From Alphaproteobacteria bacterium (lineage in GTDB: Bacteria > Pseudomonadota > Alphaproteobacteria > Rs-D84 > CACZYB01), in contig WQWV01000003.1 of assembly GCA_009785175.1 (NCBI GenBank), positions 1-55,598 on the forward strand: 55,598 nucleotides of DNA, read 5' to 3'. Below, one piece after another: positions 257 through 47,060 of this stretch. The notes beneath the pieces are model-generated. The model was not told the origin of the DNA. It saw only the letters and a list, made by a program, of their open reading frames with translations, and ran no database searches. Numbering within the stretch: the stretch's first letter is position 1; each line of letters opens with the position of its first letter. The translations under genes and the position numbers were made by a program.

Positions 257-3200
257 ATGTTGAATGAAATTATGAATGCTTTCAAAACCCCGGCGCCCGA
301 AGACATCTTCTCGAAGCTGAAAATATCAATCGCGTCCAAAGAGCAGATGTTGCAGTGGTCGAACGGCGAGGTCAAGAAGACCGAAACCATAAACTACCGC
401 ACCTTTAAGCCCGAGAAGGAAGGCCTTTTTTGCGCCAAAATCTTCGGCCCCGTGAAGGACTATGAATGCTTGTGCGGAAAATACAAGCGAATCAAATACC
501 GCGGTGTCGTGTGCGAAAAGTGCGGCGTCGAGGTCACCCTTCAAAAGGTTCGCCGCGAGCGCATGGGGCACATCGAGCTTGCGTCGCCTGTTGCTCACAT
601 CTGGTTTTTGAAATCGTTGCCCTCCAAAATCGGCGCGCTTCTTGATATTCCCTTGAAGCAAGTCGAGAAGGTGTTGTATTTCGACAACTATATCGTTATC
701 GAGCCTGGATTGACCCCTTTGAAACTGCATGAATTGTTGTCGGAAGACCAATATCAGCAGTGCCTTGAGGAATACGGAGCGGATTCGTTCCGTGCCGGAA
801 TCGGTGCCGAAGCGCTAAAGGAAATGCTTGCCGGAATCGATTTGGCCGAGTCCGCCGCCGCGCTTCGCGTCCAGCTTGCCGACCTTAAATTCTCGATGGC
901 GCGCAAGAAAATAATCCAGCGTTTGAAGATTATCGAGGCGTTCCTTAATTCGAAATCCAAGCCCGAGTGGATGATTATGGACGTCATACCGGTAATCCCG
1001 CCGGAACTGCGCCCACTTGTCCCCTTGGACGGCGGACGTTTCGCGACCGCGGATTTGAACGACCTTTACCGTCGCGTCATCAACCGCAACAACCGCCTGA
1101 AGCGCCTTATGGAACTTAAAGCGCCCGAGATCATCGTTCGCAATGAAAAGCGTATGTTGCAGGAGGCCGTGGATTCGTTGATGGACAATTCGCGCCGTCC
1201 GCGCCCCGTGCTTGCCAACAACCGCCGCATGCTCAAATCTTTGTCCGACATGCTAAAGGGTAAGGCCGGACGTTTCCGTCAGAACTTGCTTGGTAAGCGC
1301 GTCGACTATTCCGGTCGTTCGGTTATCGTATCGGGTCCGAACCTGAAGCTTCACCAGTGCGGATTGCCCAAGCGTATGGCGCTCGAGCTGTTCAAACCTT
1401 TCATCTATTCCAAGCTCGAGGCGTATGGCTATGCCAACACCATCAAGTCTGCGAAGAAGATGGTGGACAAGGAGCTCCCGATGGTTTGGGACATCCTTGA
1501 GGAAGTTATACGCGAGCACCCGGTCCTTTTGAACCGCGCGCCGTCGCTTCACCGCCTTTCGATACAAGCGTTTGAGCCCGTGCTTATCGAGGGCAAGGCG
1601 ATCCGCCTTCACCCGCTTGTGTGCACTGCGTTCAACGCCGACTTCGACGGAGACCAGATGGCGGTTCACGTGCCGCTTTCGCTTGAGGCCCAGCTTGAAG
1701 CACGCGTGCTTATGATGTCCACGAACAACATATTGCACCCCGCGAGCGGCAAGCCCATCATCACGCCCACACAGGACATCGTGCTTGGCATATACTATAT
1801 GACATTCGGCATCGAAAAGGCCAAGGGCGAAGGAATGGCTTTCGCATCGATGGACGAGCTTAAACTCGCGCTTGCCGACAAAAAAGTCGACATGCACGCC
1901 AAGATCAAAGTCCGCATCGACTATTCCGAGGGCGGACAGATCAAAAACGGCGTCATAGAAACGACCGCAGGCCGCGCGCTTGTATACGAAGTCGTTCCGG
2001 TAAACGCCGGCGTGCCCTATAGCCTTGTCAACCAGCCGATGACGAAAAAGAAAATCGGCGAGCTCCTTTCCATGGTTTATAAAAACTGCGGGCAGAAGGA
2101 AACCGTCCTGTTCTCGGACAAGATCATGCGCCTTGGATTCAAGAACGCGATGCTTGCCGGAATTTCGTTCGGCAAGGACGACATCGTAGTCCCGGAAATC
2201 AAGGGCGACCTTATCGCTAAAACCGAGAAGCAGGTCGTCGAGTTCGAAAAGCAATACCAAGACGGACTTATCACCAGCCGCGAGAAGTATAACAAGGTCG
2301 TCGACGCGTGGGCACATTGTTCCGACGTGTTGGCCGACAAGATGATGGAAGGATTCGCGAAGCAGGAAGTCGGAAAGGCTCAGAACCCGCTTTACATGAT
2401 GGCCAACTCGGGCGCCCGCGGATCGAAGGCTCAGGTGAAACAGCTTGCCGCAATGCGAGGCCTTATGGCCAAACCTTCGGGCGAGATTATCGAAACGCCG
2501 ATCATCTCGAACTTTAAGGAAGGCTTGACCGTGGCCGAATACTTCAACTCGACTCACGGCGCCCGAAAGGGTATGTCCGACACCGCGCTTAAGACCGCGA
2601 ACGCCGGATACCTTACCCGCCGCCTTGTCGACGTTTCCCAAGACGCTATCATCACCGAAGCAGATTGCGAAACCACGCGCTTCATCACCGTTTCCGCGGT
2701 GGTCGACGGAGGTTCCGTCATCGAAACGTTGCCTGAGCGCATACTCGGCCGTATCGCTGCTGAAGATATCAAGGGCGCGGACGGTGCGGTAATCGTTGCG
2801 ACCGGCAATCAAATCGTCGAAGAGGACATCTCGAAAATCGAGAAAGCCGGAATCCAGGCGGTAAACATACGCTCGGTTCTTACCTGCGAAGCAAAAGACG
2901 GCATCTGCACCAAGTGCTATGGCCGCGACCTTGCCCGCGGAACGATGGTCAACATCGGCGAAGCCGTCGGTATCATCGCCGCGCAGTCGATCGGAGAGCC
3001 CGGAACCCAGCTTACCATGAGAACCTTCCAAATCGGAGGAGTCGCGTCGAAGACGGCCGAAAAGTCGTCCATCGAATCGCCATACGAAGCGAAAATCAAG
3101 CTTTACGGCGTATACACGACCACCAACTCGGTCGGCGAGTCCATAGTCATGGGCAAAGAAGCCTCGCTTGCCTTCGTCGACGGTGCCGGCAAGGAAATCA

Positions 3201-4399
3201 ACCGCCAGAAGATCCCTTACGGCGCAAAGATGTATGTCGCCGACGGCGCGTCCGTTTCCAAGATGCAGAAGATCGTCGAGTGGAACCCCTATATCCGTCC
3301 CATCATCGCGAACGCTTCGGGCAAGCTTAACTTCGTCGATTTGATCGACGGTGTTTCCGTTGCCGAATCCAAGGACGAGGCGACCGGAGTATCCTCGAAG
3401 GTGGTCGTAGACTGGAAGACCTCTTTGAAGAAGAAAGACCTCAACCCCTCGATCTATATCGTAGATGCGAAGGGCGAGGCGGTCAAACTTTCCAACGGAA
3501 ACCAAGCGAAGTTCATTATCTCGACCGGCACAATCCTTAGCGCCTCCAACGGCGACGAGGTCAAGGCCGGCGACGTCATCGCCTTTATCCCGCGCGAAGA
3601 TTCCAAGTCCCGCGACATTACCGGAGGTTTGCCGCGTGTGGCCGAACTTTTCGAAGCTCGTCGTCCCAAAGAAGCCGCCATCGTCGCCGAAAAGGACGGC
3701 GTGGTGCAATTCCGCGAGGACTTCAAATCGAAATACAAAATCGTCATCGTGCCCACCGACGAATCGGCCGAGGTCGAATACCTTATCCCCAAGACCGCCG
3801 CGATCAACGTCCAGGACGGATACATCGTCAAGAAGGGCGACAAGATCACCGACGGCAAGGTCGCGCCGCACGATATCTTGCGCATCTTCGGCGTCGAAGA
3901 GTTGGCGAAATACCTTGTCGGCGAGATCCAATCGGTCTATCGCATTCAGGGTGTTGAAATCAATGACAAGCACATCGAAGTCGTCGTCAAGCAAATGCTA
4001 CGCAAAAAAGAAATCGTCGATGCCGGAGCCACCACCTTCGTCGTCGGCGAACACGTGGACGAAGAAGACCTTGTCGAAGAAAATACCCGCGCAATCAACG
4101 CCGGCGGAAAGCCTGCGGTTTCCCGCCCGTATTTGCTTGGTATAACCAAAGCGTCGCTTCAGACCCGCTCGTTCATTTCGGCCGCGGCGTTCCAAGAGAC
4201 GACCAAGATCCTTATCGAGTCGGCCATTGCCGGCAAGGAAGATCCGCTTATCGGCCTTAAAGAAAACATCATAGTCGGACGCCTTATACCCGCCGGAACC
4301 GGTGCGTATATCGACCGCCTAAAGGCAATCGCGAAAGCCCAGGACATCGAGCTTGGCGCGGCGGCTGCGACTACCCCTGCTTTGCCTGCGGCAGAATAG
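257..4399 (+). CDS. rpoC: RNA polymerase beta' subunit
   Basis: 1380 aa; [12 protein letters not shown] catalytic motif, N-terminal zinc finger [26 protein letters not shown]; SD AAGGAG upstream. Confidence 0.99.
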
Positions 4400-4420
4400 G
4401 GAGAGGGATTACATCGACGG

Positions 4421-4456
4421 AGGGGGGCTTGCATGGCAAATGCGGGTCCCCCTTTG
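4421..4456 (+). terminator. Probable intrinsic terminator/hairpin after rpoC
   Basis: AGGGGGGCTTGCAT...ATGCGGGTCCCCCT inverted repeat followed by TTGT; U-tract is short. Confidence 0.55.
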
Positions 4457-4478
4457 TATAAAACGAAAGGAAACGAAA

Positions 4479-4652
4479 ATGGTAAGAATCGATGTTAAAA
4501 TAGGTGCCATACACGGCGCCAACGCCTGCATGAGATCGGGACAGGGAGGCTGGGTCGCGCGCGACAATAAGAAGTCCGAAGAAGCCCTTGTCCGAAAGGG
4601 ATTCAGGAACAAAACCGCACAAAAACTGAAACAAAATAGCAAAGGAAAATAA
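4479..4652 (+). CDS. Small hypothetical protein (57 aa)
   Basis: GAAAGGAA SD before ATG 4479; ends NSKGK*, as does the next ORF. Confidence 0.45.
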   Translation: MVRIDVKIGAIHGANACMRSGQGGWVARDNKKSEEALVRKGFRNKTAQKLKQNSKGK

Positions 4653-10187: not shown

Positions 10188-10383
10188 ATTTCCGCGAGCG
10201 TGCACACACTCCCACCGCCCACATAAACGCCAACTGCTCTTGGCGTTTTGGGGCAAGATTCTTATATGTAGCTTTCCCCGCGCGCACCGAAGGTGCTTTA
10301 TAACATAAATCTTTAACAACAGAACCTTGCTCTCGTGGCCTCGAGCTCTCTGCTGGGGGGGGGATTTGGGTTGATGCTTGATT

Positions 10384-33367: not shown

Positions 33368-36298
33368 TTACTCCGCCAGAATCTTACGCGCCGTTTCCTG
33401 ATCCGTATAGGGAATATCCGTGTGGCCGATTGTTATATAATCCTCGTGCCCTTTGCCGGAGATTAAAATAATATCGTCTTTGGTGGCGATTTCAATAGCG
33501 CGGCGAATCGCGTTCTCGCGGCCGGGAACTTCGGTTGCGCCCGGACAGTTGGCGGCGACCTCGGCGCGGATTTTCGCAGGGTCCTCGGTGCGGGGGCTGT
33601 CGTCCGTGATGATTTTCACGTCGGCGTATTTCGCGGCGGCGGGGCCAAGCTCGGCGCGTCTTATCCGCGTTTCGTAATTGTCGCCGCAGGTCGAGAAGAC
33701 CGAGATGATTTTGCCTCTGGCTACTTCGCGCAGAGTTTTAAGCGTGTGTTCAAGCGCGTCGCCCTTGTATGAAAAATCCACGAACACGTGCGCGCCCTTT
33801 TTCGTTTCGCCCATGTATTCAAGGCGGCCGGCAGCGTTTTTGAGTTGCGGAAGAAGCGGCATGATTTTCTTCCAATCCTTCTCGACCGAGATGAAAAGGC
33901 CAAGCGCGCAGAGCAGGTTCATAAGTTGGTATCCGCCGAGGATCGCGAGTTTCAAATCGAACTTCTCGCCGAAGATTTCGATCGTCGCGGTTTGACCGAA
34001 GAGGCTTGTGTCTTGAGAGAGGATTTTTATGTCGGCGTTGGCGGCGCGGCCATAGCTTATCACCTTTATACCGCGCGCGTCGCATATAGCCTTCAACGGC
34101 GCGAATTCGGGAATGTCGGCGTTTAGGACAGCTGTGCCGCCGGCGTCCAACATCTCGGAGAACAGGCGCGATTTGGCGGCGAAGTATTTCTCGCTCGAGC
34201 CGTAAAAGTCCACGTGGTCGTTGCCGAAGTTCGTGAACCCCGCGGCCTTGATTTTGAAATTCTTGGCCCTTTGCTGGTCGATGCCGTGCGAGGACATTTC
34301 AAGCACCGCGTGTTCGACGCCGCGATCCTTGAAATACGCCATGTCGCGGAAGAGTTCGTCGCCGGTGGGCGTCGTGTGGTCGTCGTTATACTTTATGGTT
34401 TTTTGGCCCGAGTAAACGTTGTCCACGATCGTGCCGAGCGTTCCGCTTGAGAGAGTTTTTTCGCCCAGAAGCGCCCACATCTGCCGCACGAAATCCGCCG
34501 TCGAGGATTTGCCGCTTGTGCCGGTAAGCGCTACTATAGTGTCCGGCTGCTTGGATCCATAGAACGCATAGGCGAGGTCCGAGAAAGCTATCCTTGGATT
34601 GTCGGCGCGCGCGACTGGTATGGATTTTTCCCCTATCTTAGCGTCGGTGGCGGAGTCGAATTTGTAATCGATAGGCGCAACTATCGCAGCTGCTCCGTGG
34701 TCGATCGCAGAGCCCGAGAAATCCGCTCCGTTTTTGACGTATCCGGGAATGCCCACGAAAAGCGAGCCGGGAACCGTGCGCGAGGAGTCCATCGAGATTT
34801 GGGAAATCGGGCGAGCGTCCGCGGCGGGGGTCGAGCTTAACCCTGCGGCCTTGAGCAACTTGTCAAGCGGGACGGAGGGGCGCGCGAGTTTGGCGCGAAT
34901 GAACTCTTTGTCCTTCTCATACATCGTGCCGCAGATGATAATCGAATCCCATTCGCGCGAGGTGTCGATGGTTTCGTTTATCGCTTCGTATCGGTTCGGA
35001 ATTTCGATCGCGCGCGGGCAATGGGCGAGGAGCGAGGCGCGGATTTTCGCCGGGTCCTCGGTGCGCGGATTATCGTCCGTTATTATTACCGTATCCGCAA
35101 GCCCGCCTATGACCTTGCCGATTTCGGTGCGGCGGATTTCCGGGCGGTCGCCCGAAGAGCCTATGATTAGAATAAGGTTGTGTTTCACATACGGCCTGAA
35201 TTCCGTGAGGAGTTTTTTCACGCCGTCGCCGTTGTGGCCGAAGTCGACATAGATCGGCGCGCCGTTCGGAGTGCTGGCCACGTATTCAAGTCGTCCGGCC
35301 TCGTTTTTAAGCGTGTCGAGTTTATCCGCGATACGCGCGAAATCCCCGCCGCCCACGATGAACATGCCAATCGCGCAGAGGAGGTTCATGACTTGGAACT
35401 CGCTTATGAGATTAAGCGTAAGATCGTATTTTTTGCCGAGGATATTTACGGCTACTTCTTGGCGTGTGTTTTTGATTTCGTATTTTTCGAGTCTTAAATC
35501 GCAATCGGCGCAGTGGCCATAGGAGAGGATTTTCACGCCACGGGCGCGGACGGTTTCGGCGACGCGCACCCCATACGGATCGTCGATGTTTACGACCGCC
35601 GTGCCGGAGGAGTCCAAGAGCTTGCTGAACAATATCAACTTTGCGGAGAAATATTTTTCTATGTCGTTGTCATAGTAATCAAGGTGGTCGTTCGATAGGT
35701 TCGTAAATCCTGCGGCGGCGATCTTGAGGCTGTCGACGCGGTGTTGTTCGAGCCCATGCGACGAGGTTTCGATGGCGACTTTTTCCACGCCCAAACTTTT
35801 GAGGCGAGAGAGGTTTTTCCGAAGCTCGATCGCGTCGGGGGTGGTAAGGCCTTTGCCTTCGGTGAATACTTCCGATTTTATTCCGACGGTGCCGATGGAG
35901 GCGGCGGGAGTGCCGGAGAGCTCGAATAACTGGCGCACGAAATTGACCACCGATGACTTGCCGTTAGTGCCGGTCGCGGCCGCTATGAACGACGGCTCGG
36001 ACGGATAGAAAATCTTGGCAAGCTCGGATTCAGCCTGGCGCATATCCATATCTAGGAAGGCGAATTCTATGCCTTGATACTGCGCTGCGATGGCCTTGTT
36101 ATCCGCATGCGCCACGATCGCGACCGCGCCGTTCTTGATCGCTTCGGGAATAAACTGCGCGCCGTCGAAAGCATAGCCCTTGATCGCGATGAAAAGATCG
36201 CCCGGTTCGACGCGTTTAGAATTATTCCTTAGCCCCGTGATTTCGATATCGTTTTTCGGCGCGATGCCAAAGGGCGAAAAAAGTTGGCTTAGCTTCAT
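33368..36298 (-). CDS. murE: Tandem MurE-MurE fusion Mur ligase
   Basis: Two full MurE-like units: TGTNGKSS/TGTSGKSS, ETSSHGLEQHR/EMSSHGIDQQR, FTNLSNDHLDY/FTNFGNDHVDF, DDNPRTEDP/DDSPRTEDP; final GKGHE. Confidence 0.88.
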   Translation of the reverse strand: MKLSQLFSPFGIAPKNDIEITGLRNNSKRVEPGDLFIAIKGYAFDGAQFIPEAIKNGAVAIVAHADNKAIAAQYQGIEFAFLDMDMRQAESELAKIFYPSEPSFIAAATGTNGKSSVVNFVRQLFELSGTPAASIGTVGIKSEVFTEGKGLTTPDAIELRKNLSRLKSLGVEKVAIETSSHGLEQHRVDSLKIAAAGFTNLSNDHLDYYDNDIEKYFSAKLILFSKLLDSSGTAVVNIDDPYGVRVAETVRARGVKILSYGHCADCDLRLEKYEIKNTRQEVAVNILGKKYDLTLNLISEFQVMNLLCAIGMFIVGGGDFARIADKLDTLKNEAGRLEYVASTPNGAPIYVDFGHNGDGVKKLLTEFRPYVKHNLILIIGSSGDRPEIRRTEIGKVIGGLADTVIITDDNPRTEDPAKIRASLLAHCPRAIEIPNRYEAINETIDTSREWDSIIICGTMYEKDKEFIRAKLARPSVPLDKLLKAAGLSSTPAADARPISQISMDSSRTVPGSLFVGIPGYVKNGADFSGSAIDHGAAAIVAPIDYKFDSATDAKIGEKSIPVARADNPRIAFSDLAYAFYGSKQPDTIVALTGTSGKSSTADFVRQMWALLGEKTLSSGTLGTIVDNVYSGQKTIKYNDDHTTPTGDELFRDMAYFKDRGVEHAVLEMSSHGIDQQRAKNFKIKAAGFTNFGNDHVDFYGSSEKYFAAKSRLFSEMLDAGGTAVLNADIPEFAPLKAICDARGIKVISYGRAANADIKILSQDTSLFGQTATIEIFGEKFDLKLAILGGYQLMNLLCALGLFISVEKDWKKIMPLLPQLKNAAGRLEYMGETKKGAHVFVDFSYKGDALEHTLKTLREVARGKIISVFSTCGDNYETRIRRAELGPAAAKYADVKIITDDSPRTEDPAKIRAEVAANCPGATEVPGRENAIRRAIEIATKDDIILISGKGHEDYITIGHTDIPYTDQETARKILAE

Positions 36299-36362
36299 GT
36301 TAGTCCTTGTCAATTCGCTATCCATTATATAAACTATGAGAGTTGTTTGCAAGGAGAATGAA

Positions 36363-41328: not shown

Positions 41329-41829
41329 TTACGGGTTTTTCTTTGGAGTTGTTTTATTTTTGAACTCCAACTTGACATTCTCCAACATATCGGGATAGAA
41401 ATCGCTTTCGCAGGTCCAGTTGTTCCAGAAGCCCGGGAGTAGGCCACTAAAATACCATTTGCGGCCGGCGTTTTTGAAACCTAGGTGTTTCATGATTTCC
41501 GTCGGCGCGCGGTTTTTCGGGCGGACGTAGGCGGACTTCCTATACCCCTTCGCGTTGTCGAAAATGATTTTGCCAAGGTGTTTGAGGTAAACGGAGTTCC
41601 GGAATTTCGGGAATAGAATCACCTCGAGGATATGGCAGCCTTCCGGGTTGAATTTCTTTAGCCCGGCGAAGTCGAGGAATACGACGCCAATCCATTCGCC
41701 GGTCGAGTATTGAAGCACGTAGCCCTTTAGCTTTTTCCAATGCTCGAGCAGGTATTCTTTGCTGCAGAAATCGGCGGCGGTGAATTCGTGCGCGGCCAGC
41801 CTTTCCCATTTGTCGAGGTCGGATTTCAA
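41329..41829 (-). CDS. Hypothetical, possibly GNAT-fold protein
   Basis: VILFPKFRN...NRAPTEIMKHLGFKNAG resembles GNAT motifs A/B; TTG start after ffh. Confidence 0.5.
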   Translation of the reverse strand: MKSDLDKWERLAAHEFTAADFCSKEYLLEHWKKLKGYVLQYSTGEWIGVVFLDFAGLKKFNPEGCHILEVILFPKFRNSVYLKHLGKIIFDNAKGYRKSAYVRPKNRAPTEIMKHLGFKNAGRKWYFSGLLPGFWNNWTCESDFYPDMLENVKLEFKNKTTPKKNP

Positions 41830-41858: not shown

Positions 41859-43193
41859 CTATGGCTGTCCCCCCTGCATGTTCTTCATCATCTCCATAAT
41901 GCCCTTGACGCCGCCCATAGATTTAAGGCCGGACATCATCTTCTTCGATTTCTCGAATTGCTTGATAAGTTTCTCGACGTCGTTTACGGATACGCCCGCG
42001 CCGGCGGCGATGCGTTTTTTTCGGCCCATTAAAATTATGTCGGGATTGCGGCGCTCGGACTTGGTCATCGAGAGAATCATCGCCTCCTGTTTTTTCACCG
42101 AGTCGTCGTTCATGCCGGCTTGTTGGAGACGGTCGGCAAGGCCGCCTATGCCCGGAAGGAATTTTATTATGCCGGACGCGCTTCCGAGTTTTTTGATTTG
42201 TCTTATGTGGTCAAGCATGGTGTCGAAGGTGAACGCGCCCTCGAACATTTGTTCGGCTATGCGCTCGGCCTCGGCGTCGTCGATTTTTTCCTGCGCCGTT
42301 TCGACAAGCGATACTATGTCGCCCATGCCCAAGATCCGGGACGCGGTGCGGTCGGGGTGGAACGCCTCGAGGTCGTCGATTTTCTCGCCGGTGCCGACGA
42401 ACTTCACGGGAATATTCGTGGCGCCGAAAAGCGATAATGCAACGCCGCCGCGCGCGTCGCCGTCCATGCGGGTGATGATCGCGCCGGTAAGGGATAGGGC
42501 TTCGTTGAATTGGGTGGCAAGCGTGAGCGCGTCCTGTCCGGCGAAAGCGTCGATGGTTAGCAGGATTTCCGTTGGCGCGAGGATTTTCTTCAGCGATTTG
42601 ATTTCCGTCATCATCTCGTCGTCGATGTGCAGCCGTCCGGCGGTGTCGAAAATCATGACGTCATAGTTGGAGGCGGCCTTTAGCGCGCGCTTGGCTATGG
42701 CTTCGGGGGTTTCGTTTTCGATTATCGGGAGTGAATCGATTCCAGCTTTTTCCGCGAGAATGGCAAGTTGTTCGCGGGCTTGGGGTCGGTATGTGTCGGC
42801 GGAGGCCAAAAGGACTTTCGCCCCGTCCTTTTTTAGCAATGCGGCAAGCTTGGCCGCGCTTGTCGTCTTTCCGGTGCCGTTCAATCCGGCCATCATAATA
42901 ATACCGGATTTCGCGACGGGTTTATTCTCGCCGCCAAGGATTGCGGTGATTTCGTCGCTGAAGATTTTCACTATTTGCTCGCCGGCCTTGACACCGTCGA
43001 TAATCTTTTCTCCGATCGCGCGGGCGCGGATTTTATCCACAAGCTCCTTGACCACCGGAAGCGCTACGTCCGCCTCGAGAAGCGCAATCCGTATGTCGCG
43101 CATGGAGGTGTCGAAGTCGGCGTCCCTTATTTTATCGCGGCCAAGGAGCTGCGCGAAGGCATTTGAAAAATTCTTGGTAAGGTTATTGAACAT
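41859..43193 (-). CDS. ffh: Signal recognition particle protein
   Basis: ALLEADV, GLNGTGKTT, DTAGR, DGDARGG, RILGMGD, SMTKSER. Confidence 0.97.
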   Translation of the reverse strand: MFNNLTKNFSNAFAQLLGRDKIRDADFDTSMRDIRIALLEADVALPVVKELVDKIRARAIGEKIIDGVKAGEQIVKIFSDEITAILGGENKPVAKSGIIMMAGLNGTGKTTSAAKLAALLKKDGAKVLLASADTYRPQAREQLAILAEKAGIDSLPIIENETPEAIAKRALKAASNYDVMIFDTAGRLHIDDEMMTEIKSLKKILAPTEILLTIDAFAGQDALTLATQFNEALSLTGAIITRMDGDARGGVALSLFGATNIPVKFVGTGEKIDDLEAFHPDRTASRILGMGDIVSLVETAQEKIDDAEAERIAEQMFEGAFTFDTMLDHIRQIKKLGSASGIIKFLPGIGGLADRLQQAGMNDDSVKKQEAMILSMTKSERRNPDIILMGRKKRIAAGAGVSVNDVEKLIKQFEKSKKMMSGLKSMGGVKGIMEMMKNMQGGQP

Positions 43194-43195
43194 GT

Positions 43196-44506
43196 CTATC
43201 TTCCTTTTTGTTTCTTTATTTTATCAAGTTCTTTTTGTCCCCGAATCGTCGTGTCGCCGCCCTTGACAAGGGAAAGCGCGAAGCGGGCGTAATAAAGCGT
43301 AGTTCCGACGGTTTTTGTCGACACTCCACCCCCCCCCATGGCGCGCGCTATTTCGATCGCCGAGGCCTTTCGTCCCGAGCCGTAGGCAAGCTCGAGCGCT
43401 TGGGCGTATCGCGGGCTTAGGTATTTGAAAAGCTCCTTGTCCGCCTCGAAGGTTTCGGGGGTTATTATGTCGGTGTTCGAGCAGTCGGGTTTCGATGCGG
43501 CATAATCCGCAGCCCCTTCGTCCAACTCTTGGCCAAGGCCGAACTCGTCGTATCTTTTCCTTATGTGGAGCAGGGCTTTGGAAATTACCGAGCGTATAGC
43601 TTCGGCCTTCTTGGCGTCCGAAAGGTTTCCCCCGTATCCCGCCTCGTCGCCCATTGCGGCGTAATCCGTGCGGCCGTTCCGGATGTGGAGCGAGAGCAAC
43701 TTTTGTTCGTATTGAGAGAGGAACGGGAAGAAACGTTTCATGGTCTTGAAATCGGAGAGGTCAAGCACGCCGGAGCCGTTTGCGTCCTGTTTCTTGTATC
43801 CGCGCATTTCATCGAAGGCGAGGCGTATTATTTGGGGAATGCGGACGCGCATGTGCTGCGACATTTTCCTTCGTTCGGTATAGTCGGCGATCTTACGGAA
43901 GTCGTATTTTTTATCAAGCAGCCCGTGGTCGATGAGAGCGGCTTGGATTTGGCTATAGGTAAACTTCTTTTCGAACCTTAGCTTGACGACAAGGCGGTAG
44001 AGGTCGTTGTCCACCAGTTCAAGGTATTTACTTAGGCCGGCGTATTCCACCTCGGTGTATTTGACAGAGGAGGAGAAGCGGTTTTTTTGCCCGGAATTCT
44101 TCGCGACCATTTCGCGCACATTGTCGGCGGTAAGGCCGAATTTCTCTAGGATAGAATTGTTTTTTTCGACCGGAGCGGCAAATCGGGCTGCGGCGATTCC
44201 TATGTTTCGCGCAAGGTGGAGGTCGAGGTTTGAAATGCCATTGGCGTTATAGCTTTTCAGCGCGTCGACTATGTTTTTTCGAATATGCTTTTCAAATGCG
44301 GCGCCAAGCGAGGCTCCCTTCGGCGTTCTTTGCGATATCAAGTTCGAGAAATGATCGCGTATAGCGTCGAGGATTTCGTCCCGCCTTTTGCCAAGGGTCG
44401 GATACCTTGCGCGGGTGAAAAAGCGGCCTTTGAGCTTTGATTCGACCTCGAGATATTCGCGGCGCAGGCCGGAGAGAAAAAGCGAAGTCTTGGCCTGGTC
44501 GAACAT
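43196..44506 (-). CDS. Hypothetical protein with a sigma70 region 2-like N-terminus and three sigma region 4-like HTH repeats
   Basis: Last repeat YLSPRYAQALELAYG...SAIEIARAMG...STKTVGTTLYYARFAL is sigma4-like; two weaker repeats precede it; IVDALKSYN segment. Confidence 0.55.
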   Translation of the reverse strand: MFDQAKTSLFLSGLRREYLEVESKLKGRFFTRARYPTLGKRRDEILDAIRDHFSNLISQRTPKGASLGAAFEKHIRKNIVDALKSYNANGISNLDLHLARNIGIAAARFAAPVEKNNSILEKFGLTADNVREMVAKNSGQKNRFSSSVKYTEVEYAGLSKYLELVDNDLYRLVVKLRFEKKFTYSQIQAALIDHGLLDKKYDFRKIADYTERRKMSQHMRVRIPQIIRLAFDEMRGYKKQDANGSGVLDLSDFKTMKRFFPFLSQYEQKLLSLHIRNGRTDYAAMGDEAGYGGNLSDAKKAEAIRSVISKALLHIRKRYDEFGLGQELDEGAADYAASKPDCSNTDIITPETFEADKELFKYLSPRYAQALELAYGSGRKASAIEIARAMGGGGVSTKTVGTTLYYARFALSLVKGGDTTIRGQKELDKIKKQKGR

Positions 44507-44510
44507 GGGC

Positions 44511-45086
44511 TTACCTTGCGGTTTGCGGTTTTGTATATTTTCGTTCGGCGGTGTGCTGTTCCATCGGTTTGTAAATCTTCGCGATGGCGCCAAGGCGGAA
44601 CGTTATAAAGTTGCGAATCAGACCGTCGCGCTCCTCGTTATACGACTTAAGTATTTCGTCAAGGCGGGTTAGCATGCAATTCTTGAAATCATCAATGTCG
44701 CGGGGGCGTATGTCATGGCGCTTTACAAGGGTCGATATGAATTGCCCGTAATATCCGGCCACCGTGTTAAGCAAATATTTTTGCATGGCGTTGAGGATTT
44801 CCGTTTGCTGTTCGATTTCGTTTTTGTCTTCCTTGGTTTCGGTCGCTATGAGGAGTTCCTCTCCGTCGTGCTTTTCAAGCTTAAGGCTGTTGTTCGCCAT
44901 TTTTATCAACTCGCGACGCCGTTCGGGGTCGAGCTTGCGGGCGCGAAGGAGGCGGAGTTCGTTTTCGTTGTCGATAAAGTGCCGCTGGATTTCAAGAAGT
45001 TCGGCGTCAAGCCGGCCGCTTGCAAGCAGCCTTGCGTAATCGGTGGTTTTGGTTTTGGCAATGGCCGCTGTTGTGTGTTCTGTCAT
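44511..45086 (-). CDS. Hypothetical protein with a sigma70 region 2-like segment
   Basis: YGQFISTLVKRH...DIDDF...LDEILKSYNEERDGLIRNFITFRLGAI; ATGA overlap with pgm. Confidence 0.55.
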   Translation of the reverse strand: MTEHTTAAIAKTKTTDYARLLASGRLDAELLEIQRHFIDNENELRLLRARKLDPERRRELIKMANNSLKLEKHDGEELLIATETKEDKNEIEQQTEILNAMQKYLLNTVAGYYGQFISTLVKRHDIRPRDIDDFKNCMLTRLDEILKSYNEERDGLIRNFITFRLGAIAKIYKPMEQHTAERKYTKPQTAR

Positions 45087-46675
45087 ATCGCTATCGTTAT
45101 CTTGGGGTTGTTGAACGTTTCGGCTACTTTGAATATCCTCTCGAATATTTCCATGAAGGGCTTCAGGTATTCAAGGTTGTTCATCGCGAATTTCGCCGGG
45201 TCGGCCTCGTGCTTTTCTATATAGAACCTAAGCGTTGCACCGTGCGTGCCCGTGCCGGAAAGCCTGAAGAATATGCGGCCCTTGTCGGCGGTGAAAAGTT
45301 GTATGCCAAGGCCGGGCGAGGGCACGGCGACTTCGCCGGTCGCCGGATCGGTATAGTTGAACAGCTCCTGTTTCACAACACCGAATTGTCCGACATAGGA
45401 AGTCGTCTTCATACGTTCGTAAAGGGCGGCGGCCTTTTCGGCGTCGACTCCTTCGAACGAGAATTGCGAGTAAAATACGCGGCCGTATTTCGCCCAAAGG
45501 TCGTGAAGGAGTTCGCCCGCGTTTTTGCCGGTCGAGCCCATCATGTTCAGCCAGTATAGGATCGCGAATATAGCGTCCTTTTCGCGGATATAGTCGCCGC
45601 CCTGGCCGAAGGATTCCTCGCCGCAGAGTTGTATAAGGCCAGCTTCGAGAAGAGAGCCAAGGAATTTCCATCCTGTCGGGGGAGTGTAGCATTTAAGGCC
45701 GATATCTTCGGCGACCAGGTCGAGCGCATTAGAGCTTGGCAACGTGCGTGCAACTCCGGTAAGGCGGTTCCTGTAATACGGAATATCCTTATAGTTCATG
45801 GCCATGACCGCAAGCGCGTCGGGCGGTGTGATGAACGTTTTTGCGCCAATGACCATATTGCGGTCGCCGTCGCCGTCGACAGCCGTGCCGAAGTCCGCTT
45901 TGCCGTCCATCATGAACTTGAAAAAGTCGGGGTTGTAGGCGGGATTGGGCTCGGGGTGGAGGCCGCCGAAGTCGGGCATGGGAGTGGCGCGCAGGATCCA
46001 TTCGTCCGGGCAGCCGAACTCGCCGCAGAATATGCGTTTGGCAAGCGGGCCGGCGGCGGCGTTCATGCAGTCCATGCGGAAAGTATTGCCAGCTTTGAAC
46101 CATTTGTGTATAGCCTCGAAGTCGAACATGGACTTCATAAGCTCGAAGTAATCCTCGTTCGCGTCGATTATGGTCGCACGCGACAATGCTTCGGCGTCCG
46201 TCATGTCCGCTATTTCATAGCTTGTCATTTTTTTAGTGTCTTCGTAAAGCGGGTTGGTGAAGCCCTCGGACGGGCCGCCGCCGTTGGCCATCTCGACCTT
46301 GATCCCATAATCTTTGTCTATGCCGGCCGGATTATGCGAGGCGGAAAGGACCAGGCCGAAGTCGGTGCCGTGATGCCTTATCATGTGCGAGATCGCGGGC
46401 GTTATACACACAAAATCCTTGTTCGCGACAAGAATTTTTTCGACCCCGTTCGCAAGCAGAACTTTTATTATCCGGGGCAGGACTTTGTCGTTGGGATATC
46501 TTCCGTCGCCGCCGATGGCGCAGGTTTTTATCGGCTTGCCGATAAGTTTTAGGCGGGTTATCACCGCCTGGACGAACGACTCGACATAGTGTGGTTGCGT
46601 GAACTCGCGCGTGGGGCGGCGAAGGCCACCTGTGCCGGGTTTTTGCGTTGTAAACGGCGTGAATTCGACCCTCAT
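45083..46675 (-). CDS. pgm: Phosphoglucomutase
   Basis: QKPGTGGLR, LSASHNP, DGDGDRN, TGWKF, CGEESFG, FRLSGTG. Confidence 0.95.
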   Translation of the reverse strand: MRVEFTPFTTQKPGTGGLRRPTREFTQPHYVESFVQAVITRLKLIGKPIKTCAIGGDGRYPNDKVLPRIIKVLLANGVEKILVANKDFVCITPAISHMIRHHGTDFGLVLSASHNPAGIDKDYGIKVEMANGGGPSEGFTNPLYEDTKKMTSYEIADMTDAEALSRATIIDANEDYFELMKSMFDFEAIHKWFKAGNTFRMDCMNAAAGPLAKRIFCGEFGCPDEWILRATPMPDFGGLHPEPNPAYNPDFFKFMMDGKADFGTAVDGDGDRNMVIGAKTFITPPDALAVMAMNYKDIPYYRNRLTGVARTLPSSNALDLVAEDIGLKCYTPPTGWKFLGSLLEAGLIQLCGEESFGQGGDYIREKDAIFAILYWLNMMGSTGKNAGELLHDLWAKYGRVFYSQFSFEGVDAEKAAALYERMKTTSYVGQFGVVKQELFNYTDPATGEVAVPSPGLGIQLFTADKGRIFFRLSGTGTHGATLRFYIEKHEADPAKFAMNNLEYLKPFMEIFERIFKVAETFNNPKITIAI

Positions 46676-46735
46676 ATTTTTTCCTTTGCTTAGGTTCCCA
46701 AAATTTGGTATAATATACCCCGTAAAGGAGCGGTT

Positions 46736-46948
46736 ATGCAAGCACAAATAATGAGCAAAGTGGAAAACTACCTTAGGTCCAAATTCGGGAATCAGGACAT
46801 ACGCCTTGTCGGTGCGAAGACCGATCCGAGCATGGCCGAGGTCTATATCGGGAGCGAGTTCGTAGGAACGCTTTACCGCGACGAAGACGACGGGGACGTG
46901 AGTTTCGACTTTAACATGTCCATATTGGCCGAAGACCTTGACATCTAG
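46736..46948 (+). CDS. DUF3126-like small protein
   Basis: YLRSKFGN...AEVYIGSEFVG..YRDEDDGDVSFDFNMSILAEDL matches the recalled family pattern. Confidence 0.75.
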   Translation: MQAQIMSKVENYLRSKFGNQDIRLVGAKTDPSMAEVYIGSEFVGTLYRDEDDGDVSFDFNMSILAEDLDI

Positions 46949-46973
46949 CGCCGGACTTTGTAGAATTGCGTTC

Positions 46974-47044
46974 GGCGGGCGCGGGAGCGACGCAACGGGT
47001 CAGAGCCGGAAGGCAGCAGCCCACTTTGTTTCCCGCGGGTCGCC
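46974..47044 (+). ncRNA. ffs: Signal recognition particle 4.5S RNA
   Basis: Helix 8 motif GGGTCAGAGCCGGAAGGCAGCAGCCC within a long hairpin (GGCG...GCGGGA / TCCCGC...CGCC); promoter TTGACA(46938)-17-TAGAAT. Confidence 0.9.
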
Positions 47045-47060
47045 ATTATTTATTTGTCCG

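Follow-up and report, generated by a model that had tools for sequence, protein, structure and literature searches.

An orphan gene pair inserted between pgm and ffh of a termite-gut alphaproteobacterium: a candidate multi-headed sigma-region-4-type DNA-binding protein and its possible helical partner

What are two open reading frames (ORFs) without known relatives doing between pgm, the gene for phosphoglucomutase, and ffh, the gene for the SRP54 GTPase of the signal recognition particle (SRP)? The question is raised by an uncultured alphaproteobacterium (assembly GCA_009785175.1), in which the two, here called A and B, are packed between these genes on contig WQWV01000003.1; the window analysed is the whole stretch of 55,598 nt from this contig. 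We report that the pair is an insertion into an otherwise conserved junction of a reduced genome of about 1.1 Mb from the termite gut, that both members are orphans with a composition of the coding type, and that B gives weak but concordant signals of helix-turn-helix (HTH) domains of the sigma region 4 type. On the best explanation we can offer, to which we assign a probability of roughly one half, B is a multivalent DNA-binding regulator with several such heads, A is its helical partner, and together they form a lineage-specific insert. The original prediction, made from the sequence alone, had seen in the pair a split or multivalent sigma factor, a sigma mimic or a decoy, and this is retained here as a minority possibility that is not the best-supported reading. 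The four genes concerned are the following.

45083..46747 as listed, minus strand: pgm (phosphoglucomutase), upstream neighbour
44511..45086, minus strand: ORF A, 191 amino acids (aa), a near-neutral, all-helical orphan
43196..44506, minus strand: ORF B, 436 aa from its ATG, a basic, all-helical orphan with three to four HTH-like units
41859..43193, minus strand: ffh (SRP54 GTPase), downstream neighbour; Pfam SRP54 (E 9.9e-69), SRP_SPB and SRP54_N

A and B look like real genes of the host genome. Their coordinates and junctions are as first described: the pgm stop codon overlaps the start of ORF A in the tetranucleotide ATGA, and the TAG of ORF B is followed by 2 nt and then by the ATG of ffh. 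Between the two ORFs, which lie in different frames, 4 nt separate the TAA of A from the ATG of B. The latter is preceded by AAGG, a plausible ribosome-binding site, and upstream of it the frame stays open for 32 codons, so that an alternative start at a TTG (44593) would give a B of 465 aa. The codon-usage scores of A (0.483) and B (0.399) compare with 0.379 +/- 0.125 for 310 long ORFs of the genome, their GC contents at third codon positions are 0.60 and 0.64 (long ORFs of the genome, 0.654 +/- 0.056), and for both the annotated frame has the best codon usage among six. Public contigs match the assembly over the pair without variants or indels, but may be its source data: the two full public DNA matches share one 6,571-nt contig, possibly that source, and so provide no independent check of the frame or of the length of the G9 tract described below. 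A third public study contributes one identical piece of 151 nt (44632-44782), and the public matches listed include no RNA data set.

These data bear on the view that A and B have little or no function, being young, fast-evolving or decaying ORFs that are tolerated as the pgm-ffh operon stays readable, a view that takes in the single frameshifted gene of which A and B would be the two halves. The different frames only 4 nt apart, the frame of B that is open for 32 codons upstream, the slippage-prone G9 tract inside B and the failure of every search to find a homologue all speak for it. Nevertheless, we consider it improbable, since frames of 191 and 436 codons with genome-typical usage, each the best of six, are found together with the AAGG site and with HTH and EF-hand-type motifs that are recognisably intact. 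The frameshift version, which the original prediction had itself named as a way to fail, meets with a junction between A and B that carries no homopolymer and with the indel-free public contigs.

By sequence comparison, A and B are lineage-specific orphans. With HMMER, all of 1.84 billion representative proteins were scanned for B, and B itself was the sole match; it was likewise unmatched in 40 relatives and in viral contigs. For A, a word-index search found only A itself at near lengths and nothing at longer lengths, and there was no match in the 40 relatives, in 400 genomes of the class or in viral contigs; one hit (L048, 33% identity over A70-132) was set aside as a low-complexity accident with an unrelated 442-aa protein. 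No paralogue of either was found in the genome itself, and a sequence search of the PDB found no counterpart to A or to units 1 and 3 of B, which are defined below.

The junction that they occupy is conserved. Counting every family-level relative with both genes on one locus, pgm lies directly upstream of ffh without an insert in 13, although the genomes are far apart, with Ffh only 57-64% identical even within the family. Among the eight relatives with ORF-level coordinates, the gap between the genes is 15-34 bp in five (G004, G007, G008, G011 and G013) and 246-266 bp in three (G002, G005 and G010), and no remnant of A or B was seen in the relatives' gaps; synteny, which had been proposed as a check alongside the original prediction, thus places A and B in none of the relatives' junctions. 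A further genome with pgm upstream of ffh, the congener G001, has a gap of 1.6 kb that is filled as tightly as that of A and B by another insert (L036:3552-5176), comprising an N6-adenine methylase of the Eco57I type (NPPY motif; E 4.3e-7) and a following ORF without a family, possibly a restriction-modification pair. In seven genomes from other families of the order, pgm is not beside ffh. The 13 uninterrupted junctions and the different cargo of G001 therefore identify A-B as lineage-specific cargo at a junction that is turning over.

Such a setting invites the explanation that A and B are mobile or defence cargo of a variable hotspot, for example a regulator or toxin-antitoxin-like pair that an integrated element left behind, or a defence pair not yet characterised, in which the HTH protein would serve the element and not the host. 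The methylase-led cassette of G001 at a junction that is empty in the others would fit, as would the orphan status of both genes and a weak match of A to the JetA model of PADLOC (E 1.8e-4, 18.3 bits). However, neither an integrase nor a transposase was found, repeats, direct or inverted, are absent from the flanks of the insert, no other Wadjet component is present and B is unmatched in PADLOC. The pair matched no viral contig and no PHROG significantly, and carries no enzymatic or toxin-like domain. Its host-like composition also argues against recent arrival from a donor of different composition, and we regard service to an element as a doubtful account of the pair.

What kind of protein, then, is B? 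It has a net charge of +22 and is predicted to be all-helical, although the model, built from a single sequence, has a mean predicted local distance difference test score (pLDDT) of only 42.6. Its features are given below, unit 0 (U0) having been located with a hidden Markov model (HMM) of the HTH units of other orphan genes of this genome, those on contig C17, which are described further on; ECF stands for extracytoplasmic function.

44066..44209, minus strand: U0, a possible extra HTH (B100-147; ...ILEKFGLTADNVREMVAKNSGQKNRFSSS), from the HMM of C17 units
43811..44053, minus strand: unit 1 (B152-232), region-4-like by pattern (LVDNDLYRLVVKLRFEKKFTYSQI)
43748..43786, minus strand: EF-hand-like calcium-binding loop DANGSGVLDLSDF (B241-253), between units 1 and 2
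43544..43747, minus strand: unit 2 (B254-321), with a sigma-4-like fold in the model
43265..43459, minus strand: unit 3 (B350-414), an ECF-type region 4 HTH (YLSPRYAQALELAYG...AIEIARAMGGGGVSTKTV)
43329..43337, minus strand: G9 homopolymer (C9 on the plus strand), B codons 390-393 (MGGGG), in the turn of unit 3

Evidence for HTH modules of the sigma-4/LuxR type in B comes from profiles, folds and learned features. In Pfam, Sigma70_r4 reaches 19.5 bits (cut-off 24.1; E 6.8e-4) with its best stretch at B171-187, and Sigma70_r4_2 reaches 15.5 bits (cut-off 25.7; E 0.014) at B361-408; TIGR02937, the sigma70-ECF model, gives 20.8 bits (cut-off 42.9; E 2.4e-4) at B357-409. An ECF HMM of our own, made from 25 ECF sigma ORFs of Alphaproteobacteria (of 28, three outside 150-260 aa were dropped, and an unpublished-genome locus was excluded), places B363-411 on its sigma-4 part (HMM positions 130-173), and its whole-B score of 5.0 bits was reached by none of 200 shuffles. 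Three profile sets thus find unit 3, all below threshold. Unit 2 is picked out by structure. When the B model was compared exhaustively by VIA-align with 48,161 chains of the PDB, about B239-323 accounted for 12 of the 50 best rows, and nine of these 12 are named sigma region-4 domains (SigA, BldN, SigF, SigD, SigW, SigR, CnrH, sigma-28 and SigK; Z 4.7-5.3, 57-68 residues aligned), as exemplified by region 4 of SigA (6ono_B, Z 5.3, 65 residues aligned at 3.4 A) and by SigD4 (3vep_D, Z 5.1, 68 of 68). The remaining three rows are DosR, BrxC and a chain of the AfsR activation complex. These matches lend moderate support to a sigma-4 nature of unit 2 in the model. Foldseek gave no match to the whole-B model at E <= 1e-3, and the feature neighbours listed for B in the ESM Atlas are all sigma-70/HTH clusters, at a score of 0.94 and with only 148-156 shared features.

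The original prediction of three region-4 units in B therefore holds, weakly but consistently, for units 2 and 3, while unit 1 shows the pattern and a partial Sigma70_r4 stretch (B171-187 on profile positions 10-26, no stretch passing alone) within predicted helices at 152-164, 167-179, 184-193 and 203-231. The units are poorly related to one another: units 2 and 3 are weakly similar (z 2.57, reached by 9 of 300 shuffles), and the similarities of unit 1 to units 2 and 3 are within chance. Region 2, also read into the N-terminus of B, finds no support; Pfam Sigma70_r2 has no match to B at E <= 10, and the stretch looks more as if it belonged to an additional HTH unit. Here the HMM from 11 C17 HTH units has its best domain (B121-143, 5.2 bits, a weak score), and its whole-B score of 6.9 bits was not reached in any of 200 shuffles, which suggests a possible fourth head where a sigma-2-like segment had been seen.

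A is harder to place. All peptide strings quoted in the original prediction are present, those of A at A120 (LVKRH), A130 (DIDDF) and A142 (LDEILKSYN...) and those of B at B79 (IVDALKSYN...), B164 (LVDNDLYRL...), B262 (FLSQYEQ...) and B362 (YLSPRYAQ...). Yet the paralogous segment deduced from them lies within chance: the best BLASTP E-value between A and B is 0.18, the local alignment of the A C-terminus with the B N-terminus has a z of 1.69 (24 of 300 shuffles reach it), and a common 5-mer such as the shared LKSYN occurs in 502 of 5000 shuffles. One stretch remains of interest with regard to sigma region 2.

44565..44771, minus strand: A106-174, the sole stretch with a weak sigma-2-type profile match; contains LVKRH, DIDDF and LKSYN

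The C-terminal half of A has a single match in NCBIfam, which covers this stretch: the model PRK06759, 'RNA polymerase factor sigma-70', is matched with 12.4 bits (E 0.1) at positions 6-74 of its 156, a range that lies in its sigma-2 part. Closest in structure to the Atlas model of A (predicted template modelling score 0.59) are clusters of RpoD and SigA (template modelling scores by query of 0.59 and 0.50), and five of the ten structure rows listed are sigma-related; these alignments, however, carry the flag 'under the bar', and in the best of them it is the non-essential region of RpoD that is aligned. An AlphaFold2 model of A (pLDDT 55.5, seven helices) has generic helical matches in VIA, the best (Z 8.0) to a membrane protein, with no sigma factor among the 50 best rows; Foldseek gave no match at E <= 1e-3 in the PDB or BFVD; sigma factors were absent from its PDB rows, and the sigma-named entries in BFVD were two phage proteins at ranks 45 and 47 (E about 3). 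The ECF HMM scores A at 0.7 bits, a value reached by 30 of 200 shuffles, and thereby does not separate it from them. No Pfam family matched A at a useful level, and Sigma70_r2 (PF04542) was unmatched at E <= 10 in A, as in B, when whole proteins and pieces were searched. Of the claim that A is a region-2 protein, one match at E 0.1 and the Atlas look-alikes are left.

A true split sigma factor would make of A a sigma-2-like module on the beta' clamp helices and the -10 element and of B a sigma-4 subunit, one of whose heads would engage the beta flap and the -35 element, the extra heads serving as added DNA contacts or decoys. The adjacent and tightly coupled genes, the sigma-4-type units and sigma-70 neighbours of B, and the PRK06759 and Atlas matches of A all favour such a factor. 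The absent region-2 match is weak evidence against it, because Pfam misses region 2 also in two other divergent sigma-like proteins of this genome with significant region 4. Natural split sigmas are moreover documented in the available part of bioRxiv 10.64898/2026.10.01.756105. Against this stand the missing Sigma70_r2 match itself, the ECF HMM score of A, its generic helical bundle in the AlphaFold2 model and Atlas alignments that stay below the bar, as well as the absence of the pair from all relatives and of a promoter region of its own. To our knowledge, no sigma factor has three or four region-4 heads. Prediction of a complex between A and beta' residues 1-365 (25-row alignment) returned a score of 0.00, which speaks neither for nor against. 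None of the results ties A or B to RNA polymerase, to an anti-sigma factor or to promoters. We consider a split sigma unlikely, though it is the strongest of the competitors of a multi-headed regulator.

Elsewhere in the genome, a tandem pair of sigma-like genes lies on the minus strand of contig C48 (3117-4641), between xseA and rplM-rpsI. Their products of 260 aa (3117-3899) and 258 aa (3865-4641) are 23% identical and have significant Sigma70_r4 matches (E 2.5e-6 and 9.1e-13, respectively) without a detectable region 2, which in this genome is significant in Pfam for RpoD and RpoH only. No relatives of the C48 pair were found in 40 related genomes or in a search of 5.8 billion clusters, and hhalign of the pair with A and B gave a probability of 0.2%.

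Two further features of B may have regulatory consequences. The loop DANGSGVLDLSDF was compared with the PDB by phmmer, with calcium vector protein (1c7v) as the best match (E 0.0021) and calcium-loop proteins, calcyphosin and dockerin being also listed, making up four of the five matches at E up to 10. With Pfam EF-hand_1 the loop reaches 13.9 bits (cut-off 25.4; E 0.039), and a PROSITE-type EF-hand expression had one match in the 1,156,583 six-frame ORF residues of the genome, which is this loop, DANGSGVLDLSD. No second, paired EF-hand was seen in B. The G9 tract lies in the turn of the last head, and the gain or loss of one G would end the frame of B 33 or 36 codons later, respectively, before ffh. 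No length variants were seen in the public contigs, which may be source data. Tracts of this kind are common: the genome has 160 G/C runs of at least 8 nt, and the window has eight of 8-10 nt, at 10355, 12405, 19701, 31856, 32678, 37632, 43329 and 55121, that at 43329 being the one inside ORF B.

How might a multi-headed regulator work from these parts? The three or four heads of the sigma-region-4/LuxR kind in B would read several short DNA sites at once, either on a composite or repeated operator or by bridging DNA, and B would regulate transcription rather than confer promoter specificity on RNA polymerase as one of its subunits. A would be a small helical protein made together with B and probably its partner. 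No promoter or terminator of their own was found for A and B: minus-strand terminator-like sites are lacking between pgm and ffh, and the promoter-like sites in pgm-A-B-ffh, seven against 4.1 +/- 1.9 in shuffles, are not clearly enriched. Both appear to be transcribed by read-through from pgm, with translational coupling to pgm and ffh. Through the EF-hand-like loop between heads 1 and 2, Ca2+ could influence how the heads are arranged, and slippage in the G9 tract could switch the last head off. All these parts can also be assembled into a two-subunit sigma in which A would be a sigma-2 module on its own and B a sigma-4 subunit with multiplied promoter-reading heads, a Ca2+-responsive EF-hand and a poly-G-switched last head, the holoenzyme acting on an extended multi-site promoter. 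That construction strikes us as far-fetched; if true, a host-signal-sensing, phase-variable sigma factor would be encoded inside the pgm-ffh operon.

Several points weigh against the multi-headed regulator itself. No family match of B attains the curated cut-off, the backing of units 0 and 1 consists of pattern and scores of 5-7 bits, and the Cbp1 and Mor models that match the C17 array genes do not match B. Where sigma-4 folds match, the confidence of the B model is low (pLDDT about 52-65), and Z-scores up to 5.3 are in a range that, according to the tool, may reflect a common helical arrangement. For the weak sigma-type signals of A, a plain regulator is a poorer fit than a sigma-like pair. 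DNA binding by B and its contact with A are predictions, and homologues, on which an assessment of conservation, covariation and selection would depend, were found for neither protein.

A different function is suggested by the position of B just before ffh. B could be an SRP accessory whose C-terminal head acts in the manner of YlxM, binding Ffh and/or the 4.5S RNA and tuning the GTPase cycle of the SRP. The gene for YlxM, a protein that binds both Ffh and the SRP RNA, accompanies ffh (PMC8546722, in the portion available), B ends 2 bp before ffh, and the YlxM-family structure 1xsv_B (UPF0122) is rank 50 of the 50 best VIA-align rows, on B345-436 (Z 4.5, 82 residues aligned, root-mean-square deviation 5.3 A). 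The gene for the bacterial small SRP (4.5S) RNA is also in the window, on the plus strand at 46971-47050 (Rfam RF00169, 42.2 bits), 3.8 kb from ffh and behind a near-consensus promoter-like site (TTGACA-17-TAGAAT, 46938-46966). However, PF04297 is unmatched on this contig at E <= 10 and absent from the Pfam scans, YlxM is a single small domain where B has 436 aa and several units, all relatives have pgm and ffh without such a gene, and any sigma-4-like fold would give the match to 1xsv_B. A role in the SRP is hence the least probable of the accounts considered, and a very remote one. A UPF0122 match elsewhere in the genome (contig C52, E 0.05), in a coiled-coil/transmembrane ORF after ftsY, is regarded as noise.

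The genome comprises 58 contigs and 1.14 Mb, is 92.7% complete with 52% GC and has lipopolysaccharide genes, DUF3126 and rpoC in addition to the 4.5S RNA gene; public runs that contain the stretch are labelled termite gut metagenome. All four PGM domains are matched in the pgm product (Pfam, E 2.9e-24 to 4.9e-12). Its true start is likely the ATG at 46675 (MRVEF...) and not the listed TTG at 46747, because relatives align only from about residue 25; the TTG start would in addition overlap the divergent DUF3126 gene (46736-46948). Just downstream of ffh, a 166-aa ORF without a Pfam family (41329-41829, minus strand) was unmatched in twelve loci around ffh (6-10.8 kb) from relatives and appears to be another lineage-specific gene. 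Further away, a 994-aa ORF (33368-36352, minus strand) with two Mur_ligase_M and two Mur_ligase_C stretches appears to encode two fused Mur ligases.

On the minus strand of contig C17 (7964-10144), with rnhA/YgjP-like genes on one side and an NTP_transf_5 gene on the other, lie three closely packed orphan genes (232, 280 and 210 aa). In these, 11 HTH units of about 55 aa can be recognised, each with a K/R-x-R-T/S-x-S-E-A-like tail. The three genes match Mor (E 9.9e-12), HTH_23 (E 8.3e-8), the Cbp1 array model (E 1.5e-6) and also Sigma70_r4_2, and no relatives of them were found among 40 genomes. A jackhmmer search from one unit converged neither on the other units nor on B. Judged by its sequence, B would be one of several orphan multi-HTH proteins of this organism, not detectably related to the others.

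Should B prove to be a multi-headed DNA binder of the sigma-4 type, it would add to the little-studied HTH arrays that evolve fast and are restricted to single lineages, and would show such genes slotted promoterless between essential genes of a reduced symbiont genome. The pgm-ffh junction could then be used as a marker of accessory-gene turnover in the termite-gut lineage. A split multi-headed sigma, if real, would add a new architecture to the sigma factors. With a single genome and weak signals behind it, the finding is of modest practical value.

Among the closest known systems is region 4 of sigma-70 factors, especially of the ECF type (PF04545/PF08281; 6ono_B, 3vep_D, 5fgm_A), whose four-helix HTH pattern is shared by units 2 and 3 of B, the weak profile matches falling on the HTH core and the structural matches spanning whole sigma-4 domains. 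B differs in that its matches are sub-threshold, its chain has three or four heads instead of one and no detectable region 2, and nothing ties it to RNA polymerase. A sigma-70 factor unites regions 2 and 4 in one polypeptide, whereas here two ORFs in different frames are found, of which B has three to four HTH-like units. PhyR of the Alphaproteobacteria joins a receiver domain to a sigma-like domain that serves as a decoy; among the Pfam matches at E <= 1 there is neither a receiver nor any other signalling domain. YlxM/UPF0122 (PF04297; 1xsv) has in common with B a sigma-4-like HTH encoded directly upstream of ffh, but B has another architecture and no PF04297 match and is absent from relatives. 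YlxM is described as Gram-positive-only in the accessible text of PMC8546722.

A narrow literature search found no sigma factors with tandem region 4 domains, which does not show that none has been published. The documented split sigmas are SigO-RsoA of B. subtilis, Sig7-Sig8 of Tn916, gp55/gp33 of T4 and gp33/gp34 of SPO1 (bioRxiv 10.64898/2026.10.01.756105, in the part available). The A-B pair resembles them in consisting of two adjacent small-to-medium genes, one with weak region-4-type HTH signals and the other for a small helical protein with faint sigma-2-type signals. In contrast to them, B is much larger and multi-headed, the region-2 identity of A is putative, and the A-B pair is not in a phage or an integrative and conjugative element and shows no autoregulated promoter. 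HTH arrays (Cbp1-type, NF040595; Mor/C of phage Mu, PF08765; and the C17 genes) also consist of several small heads on a basic chain. B is unmatched by the NF040595 and PF08765 models, which match C17 in a search of its own genome (E 1.5e-6 and 3.0e-4), and where the C17 genes are clear arrays of three to four units, the units of B are longer (65-80 aa), mutually dissimilar and interrupted by the EF-hand-like loop and an acidic linker. Nonetheless, B and the C17 genes occur in the same genome, and both are lineage-restricted and fast-evolving.

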